A DNA stretch of 11,021 nucleotides from a virus. Taxonomy: Duplodnaviria; Heunggongvirae; Uroviricota; Caudoviricetes. Under the pieces are notes generated by a model. It was not told the origin of the DNA. It saw nothing but the letters and a program-made list of their open reading frames with translations, and made no database searches. Below, in pieces: positions 1 to 7,151 of the stretch. The stretch lies in the IMG/VR virus record IMGVR_UViG_2648501338_000008. One strand, written 5' to 3'. How positions within the stretch are numbered: position 1 is the first letter of the stretch; every line of letters starts with the position of its first letter. Both the position numbers and the translations under genes were made by a program.

Positions 1-204
1 GTGGACCAGTGCCACAATCTCCCCCTGCATCTCTGCCCGCAGCCAGTCTTCCGGTGCAATACGAAAATACGCCTCCGGCTCTGCAGAGATATTCACACAC
101 GGCAGATACCGCTCCCCCTCCGGCGTTCTCACCACGAAGCCGCACGACTCCGCAGGCACACACCGCCGGGTGTGTGCCAGAATCACTGATTCTGTCTGTG
201 TCAC
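1..204 (-). CDS. K: Tail tip assembly protein K (lambda gpK-like), N-terminal 68 codons only; gene runs off the low-coordinate edge
   Basis: Manual minus-strand translation from GTG at 204..202 gives MTQTESVILAHTRRCVPAESCGFVVRTPEGERYLPCVNISAEPEAYFRIAPEDWLRAEMQGEIVALVH, closely matching the lambda gpK N-terminus as I recall it (MTQTESAILAHARRCAPAESCGFVVSTPEGERYFPCVNISGEPEA...). Sits 5 nt downstream of the L stop, as in lambda (L then K). Not in the ORF track because no stop lies in the window. Confidence 0.8.
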   Translation of the reverse strand, partial: MTQTESVILAHTRRCVPAESCGFVVRTPEGERYLPCVNISAEPEAYFRIAPEDWLRAEMQGEIVALVH

Positions 205-209
205 TGGAT

Positions 210-908
210 TTACTGCGAAAGTTTGTTAATGGAAAGGAAACCGCCAAAATTAGCCACCATGCCGCGCATCTCACACCCGCGCATGCACTTGCTGCATCTG
301 TCCTTACGGATATCGGTGGTGGGTTTATCGAACTCATCCGCCACAGCCCCGCCCGTGTAACCACACTCATCAGAGCGGTAGGTCCACATACAGGTGTTCG
401 CCAGCATGATGCGACCGGGAAACAGCGCCCCGTCCGTCTCGGTCGGTGTGGCCAGCACAAACGAGGCCGTCATGGCCGTCAGCGATGACATCTGCTCCAC
501 CACCCACCGGTCAGTCAGCTCCTGCTCCGGGTCGGCCTCCGGATTGCCTGCCACAAAGTTCACCGCATCCAGAAAACGCGCATACACCCGGCGGCGGACC
601 ACCGTGGCACCCACCAGGCTCTGCAAATCCTCCGCCATCCCGGTGACAAGACCGAACAGATTGGACACCGTCAGCGACGGGCGGGCACTGCTGCCCTTTC
701 CGTTCATCTCAAAGCCACTGCCCTCAATCGGGTACGCCTCATACTGACGCCCCTGCCAGGTCACCGGCTCCCTTTTTTCATTCAGCTCATTGCAGAAAAA
801 ATACCGCTCACCACCCTGCACCGTCAGGTCAATTTCCCAGAGCACCACCCGCGGTGACTGCTCTGACTTAACCGACTCGTTCAGGCTTTCTTCGTGAATA
901 TCCTGCAT
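210..908 (-). CDS. L: Minor tail / tail tip protein L (lambda gpL-like), 232 aa
   Basis: ORF 210..935 used from the internal ATG at 908..906 (MQDIHEESLNE...). Near-collinear with lambda gpL as recalled (VVLWEIDLT, GGERYFFCNE, FPGRIMLANTC, GNFGGFLSINKLSQ end), and the same length as lambda L. The ATG overlaps the M stop (ATGA), indicating translational coupling. Confidence 0.9.
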   Translation of the reverse strand: MQDIHEESLNESVKSEQSPRVVLWEIDLTVQGGERYFFCNELNEKREPVTWQGRQYEAYPIEGSGFEMNGKGSSARPSLTVSNLFGLVTGMAEDLQSLVGATVVRRRVYARFLDAVNFVAGNPEADPEQELTDRWVVEQMSSLTAMTASFVLATPTETDGALFPGRIMLANTCMWTYRSDECGYTGGAVADEFDKPTTDIRKDRCSKCMRGCEMRGMVANFGGFLSINKLSQ

Positions 909-1249
909 CAGTTCACCACCTGCTCTATCGTGCAACTGAAATCACTGTACCGGGCATTATCCGTGACACTCCACTCACGGCACACAACCCTCACCGTCCG
1001 GTTATGTTTCGGCGGTCGCCACAAAAAGGCACGGTAACCACCATGCCACGATAAAAACTCTTCCAGCCAGCGCCGGGTTGACTCATCCGTCACCCGGAAC
1101 ACCGCCTGAAACGTCTTCAGTTGAGGATTCAGCCCTGTGGGGCGGCGCTGTTCATAACCGTCACCAAACCGCACCCTCACCACCGACGGCTTCTCACTCA
1201 CCTGCATCCCTTCACGCGGGACCAGATGCAGCGTTTTTATCTCAGCCAC
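908..1249 (-). CDS. M: Minor tail protein M (lambda gpM-like), 113 aa
   Basis: Translation MAEIKTLHLVPREGMQVSEKPSVVRVRFGDGYEQR...IEQVVN matches lambda gpM as recalled (VRKVRFGDGYSQRA ... EFEQVVN). Start is GTG at 1249..1247, overlapping the tape-measure stop (GTGGCTGA). AGGA lies about 10 nt upstream. Confidence 0.85.
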   Translation of the reverse strand: MAEIKTLHLVPREGMQVSEKPSVVRVRFGDGYEQRRPTGLNPQLKTFQAVFRVTDESTRRWLEEFLSWHGGYRAFLWRPPKHNRTVRVVCREWSVTDNARYSDFSCTIEQVVN

Positions 1250-2165
1250 TCAGCATTCCTCCGTCACGTCGCATGGACAGCATCACCGCCTGCACCCGCT
1301 GGTCAATCAGTTGCACAAGGCTGCCTGCCGCCTCCGGCCCTATCTGGCCATTAGTCCCGTCATTCTGAATGGCGATATGGTAGACCGGGGAATACACCAG
1401 ACCCGCACTGCCGTACATACTACCCACCGCGCGCACACCCAGCGAGCCATCCGCCGCCCGCGTCAGAGGCATAATGGCTTCAGGTCCGGCCTCCCCCATC
1501 AGTCCCGCCCCTTTTGCAAAGGCAAAGTACGTGGGCGTATCCACAATACTGTTGCTGTACGCACTCAGGTTTGCCGAGGTATACACGCCGCCTTTTGCAT
1601 TGGCCACCGCCCCGCCCAGCCAGTCACCAATGCTGCCGAGAAATCCTCCCGCACCGGACATACCGTTTGCCGCCGTCTTAATTCCGTTGACAATCGCGGC
1701 ATTCATAAGAACTTTTGATATTTCCTGCAGCACTGATGAGGCCCAGCTGCGCCATTCCACTTTATTTCCGTTCAGCATCTCCGTGATGTTATTCACCATC
1801 CCTGAGATACCCTCCGTCGCAAGCTGTGCTGCCTGTGAGGCGTAATCGGACGCATTATCCACCCAGTTACTGAATCCCTCCTGCAGCCCTTTCTGCCAGT
1901 CCGCACGCTGCACATCCGATTCGGCATAAAAAGCTTCCTGCTCTTTAAGACGTTCACTCAGATACTGCGCATTCTGCGCCAGAGCCTGTCTGTAAAAATC
2001 CTCACTGATATCCCCGGTCTGATACTGAGACTGAAGGTCCGCATCCTTCTGGCGGAAACTGTCGCGGATCTGCTGCAACTCCCGCATGCGTTCACGGAGC
2101 TCGCTCCCCCTGCCCGTACCCCAGCAGTTCAGCATCATTCGACGCACGCGCAGCCACATTCTCAT
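1242..2165 (-). CDS. Tail length tape measure protein, C-terminal segment (about 287 aa of real sequence), in the +1 frame relative to the N-terminal segment; likely one disrupted gene
   Basis: C-terminal region (NDGTNGQIGPEAAGSL..., RRDGGMLSG end) resembles the lambda gpH C-terminus (NNDGTNGQIGPAALKAV..., RDGGLFSGG). The first about 20 residues of this ORF (MRMWLRVRRMMLNCWGTGRG) look like out-of-frame read-through; the meaningful sequence starts near SELRERMRELQQIRD, just downstream of the C5 run at 2106..2110. Confidence 0.8.
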   Translation of the reverse strand: MRMWLRVRRMMLNCWGTGRGSELRERMRELQQIRDSFRQKDADLQSQYQTGDISEDFYRQALAQNAQYLSERLKEQEAFYAESDVQRADWQKGLQEGFSNWVDNASDYASQAAQLATEGISGMVNNITEMLNGNKVEWRSWASSVLQEISKVLMNAAIVNGIKTAANGMSGAGGFLGSIGDWLGGAVANAKGGVYTSANLSAYSNSIVDTPTYFAFAKGAGLMGEAGPEAIMPLTRAADGSLGVRAVGSMYGSAGLVYSPVYHIAIQNDGTNGQIGPEAAGSLVQLIDQRVQAVMLSMRRDGGMLSG

Positions 2166-4485
2166 TCTTCAGGGTCTCTTCCCGGGACCGCAACTGTTCC
2201 CGGATTTTTTGCTGGTCAATCAGGGCCGCATTACGCAGCAGCTCCTGCTTCTGCATCTCCGTCAGGGTTTTCAGTTCGCCCTGCGCAGTCTGGTATTTCA
2301 GCTTCGCCAGCTCTGTATTCTGCCCCACAAGTGCCAGTTGCTCTTTCTGCTGCTTCAGCAGCCGGGAAAAACTGTCTTCCGCTTTTTCCGTCTCTGATTT
2401 TCCACCCCGGGATTTGGGTTTATTCGCCTCGTTATTGCGCCAGGCTTCCAGGGCATTACTGATATAACGCTGTCTCGCCTCCTGATACGGATCACCCACA
2501 AAACCGAGGTCATCCGCCGCATACCCCAGCCGGACACGCTCTTTTTCTTCCCCTTTCAGTCTGGACAGGGCCAGCTCACGCTCTGTTTTTGTCAGGGCAC
2601 TCTGCTGTTTATCATCCAGAGTGGCCTGTGGCAGCCGTAACGGCACATTCACCAGTCCCTGCCGCTGCTGAAGCAGTTCATTACCCAGCCCCAGCAGACG
2701 GTTGAATTCCGTATGCTGACCGTTCATAACCAGCATGGACTGGTACACCTTATTCTGCTCTGCCGCCTGCTGACGAATTAACGCCACACGACGGTCTTCC
2801 AGCCCGGCAAGCACATCCTGAATGGACTGCGCTTTTTCCTGCATCTGTGCCAGACGGGACTGCTCAACGGCAAGCTGCTCTGTTGCCTGAGCAAGCCCTT
2901 CCGTTACGGTCTTCACCGAGGTCAGATGGTTTATCATGAATCCGTCACCGGTCGTCCAGCCCGGGTTCGCCAGAACATACTGATATCCTGCGATTTTTTC
3001 CTGCAGGGATTTCACCCGACTGGCCTGTTCATCAATCAGCCGGTTCTGCTCTGTCAGCGCCGCCCGTGTTCGTCCTTCATTATCTGAGGCTTCAGGCAAA
3101 GACATTGACGGCGTTTTATGCGCGATTTCATCTATCGTCAGTGCATACTGGCGCGCAGACTCCCTGGCCTGCTCCTGATTCTGGTACAGCGTATACCATG
3201 CTGCAGCCCCCAGCATCACCAGTCCGGGTACGCCACCAACCAGCCCCAACGCACCACTCATCAGACGTGAGCCCACCGCCGTTGTACTGTTCAGCGCATT
3301 CTGGGCGGCGCTTCTGGCAGCAATATTTCTGTTCAGGCGTTCCTGTGTGGCCGCCAGACGGGCCTCTGCAGCAATCTGCATCTCCGTCCCGCGGGCTGCC
3401 GCCACGGCCTGCTGAGCACGGTACACGGCTGCCCTTGCCCGCGCCGTGGCAATCTGCGTTCCCCTGAACTGTGCTTCCGCCAGTGCAACTTCATTACGTG
3501 CAGCCGTCACAAGTCCTGCCGTGGCAGACACCGCTCCGGAGGCCATATTGCCAAAGTACCGGGCAACCCCGACGGCAACCAGCGCACCCACAGCTGTTGC
3601 CACATTATCAATCTGTCCGGCAACACCGTTCAGCACGCCGGAGAGCGTTTTTGTCACCCCGCTGGCCTCATTCGCACCGCCCACCCAGGCCATAAAGGCG
3701 TTTTCCACCTTTGTGATACCACCAGAAACCGTTTCCGGCATGGCCGCATATTCATCACGCAATATCCCCAGCTGGCTGATTAACGCGGGCACCACTTTAT
3801 CCGCCGTCAGTTGACCATCATCCGCCATCGCCTTCAGATCTTTACGGGCCACGCCCATACCCGCAGCCAGTGCACGAACGATCCGGTCACCACTTTCATT
3901 GACCGAATTAAACTCCTCACCACGCAACACACCCTGCGCCAGCGCCTGACTGAACTGGGTGATCACCGAACCCGCCTCAGCCGTACTGGCACCGGAGATT
4001 TTCAGCCCCGTCGAAATGGCCTCCGTCACCTTCAGCACATCACCAGCACTGTAACCATATTCACGCATCGAGGCAGCCGAACGGGCAAACAGGGCCGCAT
4101 TATCCGAAAAAGCGGTACCTGTCCGCTGACTGATATCCATCAGCACTTTCTGTGATGACGAAAATTCATCCGATGACTGCGACGCCTGTTTCAGACGGGC
4201 ATTCACGGAACTCCACTCATCAGCCAGCGAAATCAGGTGTCCGGTGGCAAAGGCACCGGCAAACGCACCAGCCATTCCGACAGCCGAAGCGCGGATTTCC
4301 GTCAACTGGCTGTGCAGCTCAGCCAGAGCACGGCGCTGCTCCCGGGCTGCCGCAGCAGCCTGACGCCCGCCATTCTGCAGGGTCCGGTAATATTCACTGC
4401 CCATACGGGAAGCCCGCTGGATCTCCGACTGGAATGACTGTGAATTTGCCGAAATTTTGATAATCAGTTCACGTAACGTCGCCAT
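2092..4485 (-). CDS. Tail length tape measure protein, N-terminal segment (797 aa), ending at a premature stop right after a homopolymer
   Basis: ATG at 4485..4483 preceded by GGAG/AAGG. Long Ala/Gln-rich helical protein with hydrophobic Gly/Ala-rich segments (LVAVGVARYFGNMASGAVSATAGLV, LMSGALGLVGGVPGLVMLGAAAWY) typical of tape measure proteins. Position between the G-T chaperone genes and gpM is canonical for a tape measure. Confidence 0.85.
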   Translation of the reverse strand: MATLRELIIKISANSQSFQSEIQRASRMGSEYYRTLQNGGRQAAAAAREQRRALAELHSQLTEIRASAVGMAGAFAGAFATGHLISLADEWSSVNARLKQASQSSDEFSSSQKVLMDISQRTGTAFSDNAALFARSAASMREYGYSAGDVLKVTEAISTGLKISGASTAEAGSVITQFSQALAQGVLRGEEFNSVNESGDRIVRALAAGMGVARKDLKAMADDGQLTADKVVPALISQLGILRDEYAAMPETVSGGITKVENAFMAWVGGANEASGVTKTLSGVLNGVAGQIDNVATAVGALVAVGVARYFGNMASGAVSATAGLVTAARNEVALAEAQFRGTQIATARARAAVYRAQQAVAAARGTEMQIAAEARLAATQERLNRNIAARSAAQNALNSTTAVGSRLMSGALGLVGGVPGLVMLGAAAWYTLYQNQEQARESARQYALTIDEIAHKTPSMSLPEASDNEGRTRAALTEQNRLIDEQASRVKSLQEKIAGYQYVLANPGWTTGDGFMINHLTSVKTVTEGLAQATEQLAVEQSRLAQMQEKAQSIQDVLAGLEDRRVALIRQQAAEQNKVYQSMLVMNGQHTEFNRLLGLGNELLQQRQGLVNVPLRLPQATLDDKQQSALTKTERELALSRLKGEEKERVRLGYAADDLGFVGDPYQEARQRYISNALEAWRNNEANKPKSRGGKSETEKAEDSFSRLLKQQKEQLALVGQNTELAKLKYQTAQGELKTLTEMQKQELLRNAALIDQQKIREQLRSREETLKNENVAARASNDAELLGYGQGERAP

Positions 4486-4506
4486 TCACCTTTCTCCGGG
4501 CGAAAA

Positions 4507-4528
4507 AAAACCTGCCACAGCAGGTTTT
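4507..4528. terminator. Symmetric hairpin (9-bp stem, 4-nt loop) with flanking A8/T-runs between the G-T chaperone stop and the tape-measure start; possible attenuator or RNA-stability element
   Basis: Plus strand reads aaaacctgc caca gcaggtttt, preceded by an 8-A run (4503..4510). On the minus-strand mRNA the stem is followed by a U-run. Read directly from the sequence; function is inferred. Confidence 0.35.
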
Positions 4529-4537
4529 CATCATCAT

Positions 4538-5217
4538 TCATGACAGTGCTGCAAGGCTCAGCGCGTCTTCCAGCGCCGCAAACGGATCCACCTCCGGCTT
4601 ATCCTCATCCTCGCCCCAGCAGAGCATGGCGTCCTTCAGTGCAACATTCATCCCCTGTGCCCCGAAAACCGCTTTCACGATCTGTGCATTACGGATATCC
4701 CCGCGCTCATCACCCAGCGGGGACACCCTGTCAAACTCCATCCACATCATCGCCTCGCTCGCACTCAGGCTGTGCCGCAGTTCGGATAAGGTGCGCCCCA
4801 GACGGAGCGCAAGTCGCATCAGAAAGCGAATTTCCGGGCGGGCTACTTTTTTCTGGCCGACTCTGCATCAGCGATCAGTTCCAGTGCCTGACGCAGCAAC
4901 CGGGCATGTACCGGACCATAGACGGCCAGCACCTGCTCACGGTCGTCCGGAGTGAACACCCGTTGCAGGTCAGTATCACACAGGACATCGCAGAACAGCG
5001 TCACATCTGCTTCCAGGTTACGGCGGGTTTTCGCCACCACCGACAGGGTATCGTCATCCTCTCCATCACCATTGAGCACTTCCTGCCACAGATACCAGGC
5101 CTCTGCCGAAGGCTCCCGCAGCACCACGCTGACATTTCTCCATTCCGGCACCTTCACCGTTTTATGACGGAACCCCGACAGTCTGGCCAGCGCCAGTGTT
5201 TTCAGATCTTTTGCCAT
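4538..5217 (-). CDS. Tail assembly chaperone G-T fusion, made by a programmed -1 ribosomal frameshift at 4846..4852 (about 226 aa)
   Basis: The -1 frame is open from the slippery heptamer through ORF 4538..4819: ...KKVARPEIRFLMRLALRLGRT.... I checked the frame arithmetic: G codons end at coordinates divisible by 3, T codons at coordinates 1 mod 3, which is -1 on the minus strand. A G/G-T gene pair immediately upstream of the tape measure is the conserved arrangement in long-tailed phages. Confidence 0.7.
4843..5217 (-). CDS. Tail assembly chaperone (lambda gpG-like), 124 aa
   Basis: ATG at 5217..5215, 5 nt after the major tail protein stop. Acidic small protein (NGDGEDDDTL) ending ...ESARKK, with the slippery site as its last codons. 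Position between the major tail and tape-measure genes. Confidence 0.75.
   Translation of the reverse strand: MAKDLKTLALARLSGFRHKTVKVPEWRNVSVVLREPSAEAWYLWQEVLNGDGEDDDTLSVVAKTRRNLEADVTLFCDVLCDTDLQRVFTPDDREQVLAVYGPVHARLLRQALELIADAESARKK
4846..4852 (-). other. Slippery heptamer A AAA AAG for the G-T -1 programmed frameshift
   Basis: Minus-strand sequence CC AGA AAA AAG TAG: the X XXY YYZ motif lies in the G zero frame, directly before the G stop codon. Confidence 0.7.
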
Positions 5218-5222
5218 AAGCC

Positions 5223-5939
5223 TTATCCGCCCGCACCATTAACCGTTACCGTACACGCATCAGAGGTAATGCTCTGCGGCTGTTCTGCAGAATCCGTTAC
5301 CTCGCAGGTATAAGCCCCCTTATCACCTGACTGCGCATTGGCTTTACTGAAAGTGTCAGTAGTCTGTCCCTCTACCGGCTGACCATCCTTCTTCCAGGCG
5401 TGTTTATAAGGCGGCGTTCCCCCGTTGACACTGACTGACATTGTCAGCAGCGCACCGGTATTCACGGTAAGTGTCTTCTCCGGATTTTTCACAAACGCCA
5501 GCGGTACCACATAGGACACCGGTTTACCCTTCAGGCGAAGTGAAAACGTTGCAGCCACCACGCCGTTGGTACCGGATGACCAGGTGTGCTGACGCACTTC
5601 CGCCAGGAACTTAAAGCCCTTACCGGACGGAAACTGCACCTTAAACGCATACACCGTGTCATTGTCATAGGCATCACGCAGGGCGTTCTGGGCCTGATTC
5701 AGATAAAAATTACCCGACATGGAAATCTCGGACGACGCCCCCAGACCGTTGATGTTCTCCTGCTCTGTGGAGCAGAGCGTGGTCACATCAATATCCTGTT
5801 TCTGACCGGCGGTGAACTGGACTTCCTTGATGGCGCAGTCCAGGCGCAGATATTCCGCCTTCTCCATGGTTTCAGCAGTCGCCGGGGCAGATGAAATCAT
5901 CACCTGCGTCAGCTGTGAACGTTCATACAAAGCAGACAT
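5223..5939 (-). CDS. Major tail (tube) protein with C-terminal Ig-like (Big_2-type) domain, 238 aa
   Basis: Preferred start is the ATG at 5939..5937 (MSALYERSQ...), preceded by AGGAGG at about 5 nt. The track start at 6077 would overlap the upstream gene and read through a T-run as FFFFF. The C-terminal roughly 80 aa (PPYKHAWKKDGQPVEGQTTDTF...DKGAYTCEVTDSAEQ...CTVTVN) has the Ig-like signature seen on many siphovirus tail tube proteins. Confidence 0.75.
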   Translation of the reverse strand: MSALYERSQLTQVMISSAPATAETMEKAEYLRLDCAIKEVQFTAGQKQDIDVTTLCSTEQENINGLGASSEISMSGNFYLNQAQNALRDAYDNDTVYAFKVQFPSGKGFKFLAEVRQHTWSSGTNGVVAATFSLRLKGKPVSYVVPLAFVKNPEKTLTVNTGALLTMSVSVNGGTPPYKHAWKKDGQPVEGQTTDTFSKANAQSGDKGAYTCEVTDSAEQPQSITSDACTVTVNGAGG

Positions 5940-5942
5940 TCT

Positions 5943-5966
5943 GCCTCCTGATAATAAAAAACCCGC
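5943..5966 (-). terminator. Candidate weak intrinsic terminator or attenuator on the minus strand, just upstream of the major tail gene
   Basis: Minus strand reads CCCGC-CGCGU-GCGGG (5-bp GC stem, plus 5952..5956 pairing with 5962..5966) followed by UUUUUUAUUAU, then the RBS and ATG of the major tail gene. A second T-rich tract (T5-C-T8, plus 5992..6005) lies upstream of the stem. Confidence 0.35.
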
Positions 5967-6006
5967 ACGCGGCGGGGTATGGGTTCTGTAGAAAAAAAAG
6001 AAAAAG

Positions 6007-6351
6007 TCACACCGTGACCTGAAACTCCAGGGTTGCACGGTAACAGCGGTTTTCCGGAATATAGTCCTGCATTTCACTGACGGATCCCGGGGCCAGCAGC
6101 ATTATGGCTTCACGGGCGTCCTGACGTATCTGACGCGCCTGCGTCACAGTCCCGGCATAAACGTCTATCTGCACCGACACTGAGGACTCCGCCTGCCCGC
6201 CCATCACGTCCGCCGACACCGATGAAATCAGGCTGAAAACCACCCACGGAAGCGCCACCGACGGCCTGCCATCCAGCAGGGGGACCACATACGGGTACAC
6301 CTGCCCGCCGGCAAGATGCGCCAGATGAGGATACAAATCCGCCTCCGTCAT
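6007..6351 (-). CDS. Tail terminator / tail completion protein (DUF3168-like), 114 aa
   Basis: ATG overlaps the upstream stop (ATGA). Motif GGQVYPYVVPLLDGRPSVALPWVVFSLIS resembles DUF3168-type neck/tail-completion proteins. Position immediately upstream of the major tail gene. Confidence 0.55.
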   Translation of the reverse strand: MTEADLYPHLAHLAGGQVYPYVVPLLDGRPSVALPWVVFSLISSVSADVMGGQAESSVSVQIDVYAGTVTQARQIRQDAREAIMLLAPGSVSEMQDYIPENRCYRATLEFQVTV

Positions 6352-6794
6352 CGTCTCAGTACCTCATCAATGGCCCGGTTCATCCGAGCAATCGCCACCT
6401 GTGCCGCCTGTTCACTGCGCACATCAAATGCCGGGCGCACAAACGGGTGCGGTGGCATATTCACGGTCCCCATTTCCACAAACCGCCAGTAGAAAGCATT
6501 GCGCGGGTTATCCGCCTTCATGGTGTTATCGCTGTTACCGGTGTCCGGATTAACACCCCGGATATGGACACCGGATTCCATCCCGCCATCGCGGGAGCGC
6601 CGGGAAAGGACCACCACATTGCGGCGCAGTTTTCCCCTGCGTACCGGTGCCCGTGACACCACTTCTTCTTTCAGCACATTCGCACCCGCACGGGTTGCCT
6701 CACGCAGCACCCGGTTATTTTCCGCACCACTCAGAAGCTGCAAATCGCGGCTGATGTCCTCCAGCCCCGAAAAATCCAGCAGGGTTTCGATCAT
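6348..6794 (-). CDS. HK97 gp10-family neck/tail component, 148 aa
   Basis: C-terminal motif AFYWRFVEMGTVNMPPHPFVRPAF matches the HK97-gp10-like signature as I recall it (aromatic-x-F-hydrophobic-E-x-G-T ... P-F-hydrophobic-x-P-A). ATGA overlap with the upstream gene. Confidence 0.65.
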   Translation of the reverse strand: MIETLLDFSGLEDISRDLQLLSGAENNRVLREATRAGANVLKEEVVSRAPVRRGKLRRNVVVLSRRSRDGGMESGVHIRGVNPDTGNSDNTMKADNPRNAFYWRFVEMGTVNMPPHPFVRPAFDVRSEQAAQVAIARMNRAIDEVLRR

Positions 6795-7141
6795 TTTTCC
6801 CCTCCCAGCCGACAGAGAATTTCCAGACGCCCGCCGGTCGCATCCGGCACGGGCAGCCCGACAACGTTCAGGATCCGGTCACGCCATGGACCACTCAGCA
6901 CATGAAGTCGTGACGCTGCCGTGATTTCCCGGCCGGACTGACCGCGCACCCAGATGCGGATTTCCGCCTGCGCCATTTCCGCACCGGACTGCATCCGCTC
7001 CCGGCTGCTCCTGCCACGGATATCCGCATGAATTTTCCCGCATGACACCCATTCTTCCGTCATTTCTCCGGCAGCATTACGGGTTAACACCGGCTTCAGA
7101 ACACTTATCATCTGTGTCAGACGACCTGCAGATATTGCCAT
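6791..7141 (-). CDS. Head closure / head-tail adaptor protein (Phage_H_T_join-like), 116 aa
   Basis: ATG at 7141..7139 with AGGAGG immediately upstream. Sequence ...AEIRIWVRGQSGREITAASRLHV...RILNVVGLPVPDATGGRLEILC resembles head-closure proteins. Position after the gp6-like connector. Confidence 0.6.
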   Translation of the reverse strand: MAISAGRLTQMISVLKPVLTRNAAGEMTEEWVSCGKIHADIRGRSSRERMQSGAEMAQAEIRIWVRGQSGREITAASRLHVLSGPWRDRILNVVGLPVPDATGGRLEILCRLGGEK

Positions 7142-7151
7142 TCCTCCCTCC

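Follow-up and report, generated by a model that had tools for sequence, protein, structure and literature searches.

An apparent frameshift in a lambdoid prophage tape-measure gene is very probably a consensus artefact of collapsed prophage copies

The window, by which we mean the whole stretch of 11,021 nt that was analysed, is the entire contig JHSS01000079.1 of the draft assembly GCA_001266095.1. It holds on its minus strand a lambdoid prophage morphogenesis block with the genes in the order portal, connector, head closure, HK97-gp10-like, tail completion, major tail (Ig domain), chaperones G and T, tape measure, and minor tail M and L. The neighbours of the tape-measure gene belong by Pfam to Phage_TAC_1, Phage_tail_T, Phage_min_tail and Phage_tail_L. 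The portal ORF is intact (915 aa; 7475..10222, minus strand) and overlaps by 55 nt an ORF of 73 aa (10168..10389, minus strand). In the three closest complete-genome relatives PGAP lists the portal gene as a 'frameshifted' pseudogene (L001 1441-4025, L101 2429-5013 and L102 2276-5022), and these calls, of 2585 or 2747 nt, start inside the 73-aa hypothetical ORF. The programmed -1 frameshift of the tail assembly chaperones G and GT is the lambda paradigm. In the window the chaperone G ORF (4843..5217, minus strand) ends in GCC AGA AAA AAG TAG with a slippery A_AAA_AAG at 4852..4846, just before the stop, and the T ORF (4538..4819, minus strand) has its ATG at 4819 in the -1 frame, which fits a G/GT fusion. 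The conserved true frameshift of this gene block is thus present in the window; it concerns a different gene, goes in the opposite direction and is unrelated to the tape-measure break described below.

The tape-measure gene is spread over two reading frames. An N-terminal ORF of 797 aa in the ORF list (2092..4485, minus strand), whose product carries the Pfam domains TMP_3 and Phage_HK97_TLTM, runs to ...AELLGYGQGERAP and a TGA at 2094..2092, and its final three codons, GCT CCG TGA, are out of frame with respect to the orthologues. The C-terminal coding part lies in the +1 frame (1242..2091, minus strand), with Tape_meas_lam_C found on the 281-aa called product. The mechanical C-terminal ORF covers 1242..2165 (minus strand) from an upstream ATG at 2165, and orthologous coding resumes at about 2097. 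The three Pfam domains and the annotation of the orthologues as tape measure assign the gene to the lambda-H-like tape measures, in accordance with the first-pass annotation, which had proposed a tape-measure gene of about 1080 aa. That annotation had also correctly described the ORF layout, namely an N-terminal ORF that stops at 2092..2094 and a C-terminal ORF that reads in the +1 frame through the same stretch, as well as a run of five C in their overlap (2106..2110; G5 on the minus, coding strand).

Intact relatives of this gene are close at hand. The lambda gpH-like tape measures ORF67 of phage BP-4795 and gp51 of phage 2851 have 97-98% nucleotide identity to the contig gene, occupy the same place between the G/T chaperone and the M and L minor tail genes and belong to the same Pfam families, but they are single 3243-nt CDSs whereas the contig version has 3244 nt. 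The intact orthologues of complete E. coli genomes are likewise single CDSs of 3243 nt that encode 1080 aa. Around the break the orthologues show two forms. The first, ...GYGQGERARERMRELQQ..., corresponds to CAG GGG GAG CGA GCC AGA GAA with a G5 run; in BP-4795 and phage 2851 it reads CAG GGG GAG/GAA CGA GCC AGA GAA (Q G E R A R E), again with G5 present. The second form, that of E. coli NZRM3614, is ...GYGQGERLRERMRELQQ... or CAG GGA GAG CGG CTC CGT GAA (Q G E R L R E). The corresponding sequence of the window is CAGGGGGAGCGAGCTCCGTGAA. In a set of 97 comparison alleles (94 from an IMG/VR pattern scan and 3 reference alleles) the spacer between the conserved flanks is 13 nt long in 97/97, all of them in frame, and only the window has 14 nt. 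These 14 nt form a hybrid stretch, GGAGCGAGCTCCGT (2094..2107, minus strand), that starts as the BP-4795/UTME-9 type and ends as the NZRM3614 type. The flanks behave in the same way: just upstream of the site the window has the haplotype of BP-4795 and phage 2851, and downstream its sequence is identical to the NZRM3614 type, the linked T at 2058 included. The TGA (2092..2094, minus strand) is a false stop that arises from the frame error, and the same bases in the NZRM3614-type allele are part of CGT GAA.

The first-pass annotation had placed the extra base within the G5 run. A single-base insertion there, by sequencing error or by replication slippage, would agree with the position of the run 12 nt upstream of the stop and within the two-frame overlap, and deletion of one G does reopen the frame. 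Orthologue alignments with the same G5 refute this model, however. When intact orthologues were aligned and inspected for G4, the check that had been proposed, 43 of the 97 in-frame alleles turned out to carry G5, those of phages BP-4795 and 2851 among them, and the run at 2106..2110 is the normal allele state and not the indel site. The orthologues retain the N-terminal frame across G-E-R, so that the window is read correctly in this frame through G5 and two codons beyond it; the difference in length is located at 2098-2101, in non-repetitive sequence 5-8 nt past the downstream end of the run. The in-silico repair that had been offered, '...GYGQG-SELRERMRELQQ...', gives GQGSELRERM and matches no orthologue, all of which have one of the two forms above (GQGERARERM or GQGERLRERM). 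We also searched 5426 complete E. coli genomes and 50,697 phage records with 81 nt around the site and found no match better than 78/81, so that none of the known alleles can be turned into that of the window by a single indel. A homopolymer insertion is therefore hardly credible. Homopolymer errors as they occur with 454, Ion Torrent or nanopore data share with the window an apparent +1 break in an otherwise intact gene, a draft assembly and a homopolymer nearby, but the run in the window has its normal length and the extra base sits at 2098-2101. The option of a sequencing error thus survives in part: a technical error in a gene that is really intact is what we favour below, whereas the homopolymer as its mechanism and place does not hold against orthologues with G5.

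The same search bears on a biological reading of the two frames. In the complete E. coli genomes it returned 1621 matching places in 579 genomes, with a median of 3 and a maximum of 6 copies of the 81-nt stretch per genome having it, and among the matches listed, 40 places per collection, all span 80 nt. Programmed +1 (or -2) ribosomal frameshifting could in principle join the two ORFs into a full-length tape measure; what speaks for it is the ORF geometry only, along with the true programmed -1 frameshift just upstream in G/GT. A recoding site should be conserved, and none is conserved here: the frame change occurs in 0/97 alleles, at 0 of the 1621 places found in the E. coli genomes and in no phage record, and the exact 797-aa product is on record from contig JHSS01000079.1 only. 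Programmed frameshifting is thereby contradicted and its probability is negligible, which bears out the first-pass annotation in disfavouring it.

To describe the composition of the gene we aligned the window with 45 full-length tape-measure relatives. A greedy copying parse divides the window into 41 segments with no private variants, in which two donor types alternate every few sites. By minimal copying parse the window ranks third of 46, and the two alleles ahead of it carry 54 and 78 private variants. One pair of relatives, L001 (NZRM3614) and L019 (a BP-4795-type IMG/VR contig), accounts for all 506 variable columns; no column agrees with neither parent and no variant is private to the window. 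Over the 113 informative sites of this pair there are 56 switches of parent. The number of runs of parent choice is 57, compared with 57.5 +/- 5.3 expected for an independent choice at each site, and at a spacing of 1-3 nt the parent switches in 20 of 35 cases, as frequently as between distant sites. Template choice is independent between neighbouring sites and the gene has no haplotype blocks. As a proxy pair from complete genomes that had been finished independently of each other we used L001 and L101 (E. coli UTME-9), the latter picked solely by its similarity to L019. The site-wise blend of two alleles extends at least over 1404..4733, and 4 more fitting sites lie at 740..747. Outside this range the picture varies. 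In gene L (158..537) the contig is of the NZRM3614 type (L001) at 34/34 informative sites, regardless of alphabetical order, and both parents are seen from 740 on; this suggests that in 158..537 the two copies either do not differ or have diverged too far for co-alignment. Informative sites are few in 5001..7000, and in 7001..11021 the relatives are too distant, with 34-43 sites per kb that agree with neither.

The choice between the two parents follows the alphabet. On the plus strand of the contig A is preferred to the three other bases, C to G or T, and G to T; with L001 and L019 as parents 106/113 sites obey this order (binomial p = 8e-24). With L001 and L101 in 1001..5000 the alphabetical minimum is taken at 117/123 informative sites, with no site that agrees with neither parent (p = 8e-28). 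The sites in 1..5000 that carry the second parent's base are all alphabetical-minimum sites. Each proxy pair leaves 4-7 sites that break the rule, and these are probably private differences between the proxies and the true parents. Several controls were run. A maximum rule gives no improvement on the best single relative, and the same test in 55 other alleles gives a minimum fraction of 0.39-0.65. The overall directional bias of the window, 0.64, is the highest of 98 sequences and reaches 0.77-0.78 in 3001..5000; at 8001..11000 it is 0.59-0.65 against control maxima of 0.59-0.61, the sampled relatives being distant in 7001..11021. A base choice that depends on alphabetical rank on an arbitrarily oriented contig is a software signature and not a biological process. 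Since recombination and mutation are blind to the alphabetical rank of a base, the rule points to software.

These patterns speak strongly against a genuine mutation. Such a reading would hold that the prophage carries a real recombinant allele with its junction one base out of register, or with a later 1-nt insertion, leading to a truncated tape measure and a tail-defective prophage. Several observations are in its favour: at the site one haplotype gives way to another, tape-measure genes are naturally mosaic, and disrupted relatives exist, both among the full-length IMG/VR genes (9/45) and, by an IS3 insertion, in one complete genome (H169). An out-of-register recombination junction was at first favoured because of the haplotype switch at the site, and was dropped because the whole gene switches randomly and alphabetically. 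Recombination cannot tie the choice of parent to alphabetical rank at 106/113 and 117/123 sites, nor would it be expected to switch parent at about half of the informative sites, even 1-3 nt apart, without a private mutation. The allele is moreover found in no other assembly, and nothing in the complete genomes or phage records searched above matches it. We consider a genuine mutation very unlikely, and with it the proposal of the first-pass annotation that a real inactivating mutation marks a defective prophage, as the gene is a position-by-position blend of two alleles that is resolved alphabetically.

The alignment of the two intact alleles explains how a frame error can arise from blending. 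Within 2094..2107 they differ at 5/9 adjacent bases. Under CLC-like, megablast-like and bowtie2-like scoring the optimal alignment replaces three mismatches with two compensating 1-nt gaps, which gives on the plus strand the gapped pair TTCACGGAGC-CGC over TTCTCTG-GCTCGT. If the alphabetically first base is taken in each column, and a base over a gap, the result is TTCACGGAGCTCGC, which is exactly the plus strand of the window. The first gap column, at 2098, has a base only in the NZRM3614-type allele (A on the plus strand, T on the coding strand), and this base is kept in the contig. The second, at 2101, has a base only in the BP-4795/UTME-9-type allele (T on the plus strand, A on the coding strand), and as it is also kept one net base is gained. 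We then simulated the process by a global alignment of the intact 3243-nt genes of L001 and L101 (match 1, mismatch -2, gap -3). Over the whole gene gap columns occurred only at window positions 2098 and 2101. The consensus simulated in this way ('first base alphabetically, base beats gap') has a length of 3244 nt, and its first stop falls on codon 798, just like that of the window. Between this consensus and the window there are 6 mismatches, compared with 109 for the maximum rule and at least 53 for the best single natural allele. The same result was obtained with L102 or L002 as second parent. The false stop is reproducible from two intact genes. Under BWA-MEM-like affine costs the two gaps were absent, so that the artefact requires gaps to be cheap in the aligner or in the consensus step.

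We conclude that the frameshift is, with high probability, a consensus artefact of collapsed prophage copies and not a homopolymer indel, a pseudogene or a programmed frameshift. The read set would have contained two near-identical copies of a lambdoid prophage tail region. Several co-resident lambdoid prophages are usual in EHEC-type E. coli, and co-resident prophages would most likely be the source of the two copies; two strains or a mixed culture are possible and would have the same outcome. One copy would resemble E. coli NZRM3614 (L001) and the other phage BP-4795 and E. coli UTME-9 / 2014C-3061 (L002, L019, L101, L102), the nature of the two templates being deduced from proxies that come from other strains. 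Both copies would have been collapsed into one 11-kb contig in which every difference was written as the alphabetically first base (A<C<G<T) on the plus strand, and keeping a base over a gap at 2098 and 2101 would have produced one net extra base and the false TGA. The true forms across 2085..2115 would then be ...GGGAGAGCGGCTCCGTGAA... or ...GGGGGA[A/G]CGAGCCAGAGAA..., and the hybrid ...GGGGGAGCGAGCTCCGTGAA... would be a product of blending that exists on no single molecule. The underlying tape-measure genes are most likely intact, with about 1080 aa.

As a plain majority vote has no alphabetical outcome, a specific tie-breaking or ambiguity-resolving step must be assumed. We infer such a step from the pattern of bases, and it may have been either tie-breaking or the conversion of ambiguity codes to their first base; the identity of the software and the intactness of both copies are likewise deduced. 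The 'Vote (A, C, G, T)' conflict rule of CLC gives A-C-G-T priority on ties and offers a lead only. Our literature search found no publication or method for JHSS00000000 / JHSS01 / GCA_001266095.

Both parental alleles were found together in no complete genome. Two copies taken from strain 2013C-4225 have the same protein product, and draft genome 2537562191 has two different alleles at the site but other than the exact pair needed. The B-type 80-mer is present in 58 records, and in 59 records the best match is just 90-95%. This suggests that the exact parental pair is rare among complete genomes. A variant of the above scenario is that one prophage truly carries the hybrid junction, for instance if co-resident prophages had undergone gene conversion and two 1-nt loops had been repaired patchily, in which case the alphabetical pattern elsewhere would be an unrelated artefact. 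We regard this as highly improbable; if it were true, the junction would be a case of inter-prophage recombination caught in the act of inactivating a tail gene.

Collapse of this kind has a precedent. Repetitive, paralogous prophage regions of EHEC are left unresolved by short reads, and collapsed-repeat chimeric consensus sequences are known for EHEC lambdoid prophages (PMC5359411). Like these, the contig is short and contains prophage morphogenesis genes only; all its variants come from two known alleles with none private, and the frame error sits at a gapped alignment. The difference is that the contig is blended by a strict A<C<G<T priority, whereas a collapsed-repeat consensus has majority haplotype blocks. 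The biological interest of the locus is small, as the contig offers evidence neither of a defective prophage nor of recoding. The case does call for caution, since draft contigs from strains with multiple lambdoid prophages can be blends that exist in no cell, and blended contigs are no reliable basis for pseudogene calls, allele typing or inferences of recombination. Two cheap checks that need no reads expose the artefact, namely a two-parent test and an alphabetical-order test on the contig strand.

A further contig, L038 (IMGVR_UViG_2648501730_000008, 5382 nt), likewise has more alphabetically earlier bases than the other loci, 0.61 overall, and its two-parent test gives 0.65 and leaves 12 sites unexplained. 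This contig too may be a blend of two alleles, on evidence much weaker than that for the window. The nine disrupted tape-measure orthologues among the 45 IMG/VR drafts (L019, L023, L024, L043, L054, L059, L067, L083 and L094) have scattered single-base indels or premature stops, with Ns in one of the nine. Draft data of this kind thus commonly contain broken tape-measure genes, which are uninformative on their own. In E. coli PE164 (NZ_CP114128.1 2147325-2151880; H169) the tape-measure gene is interrupted by an IS3-family transposase, which is a genuine inactivation.
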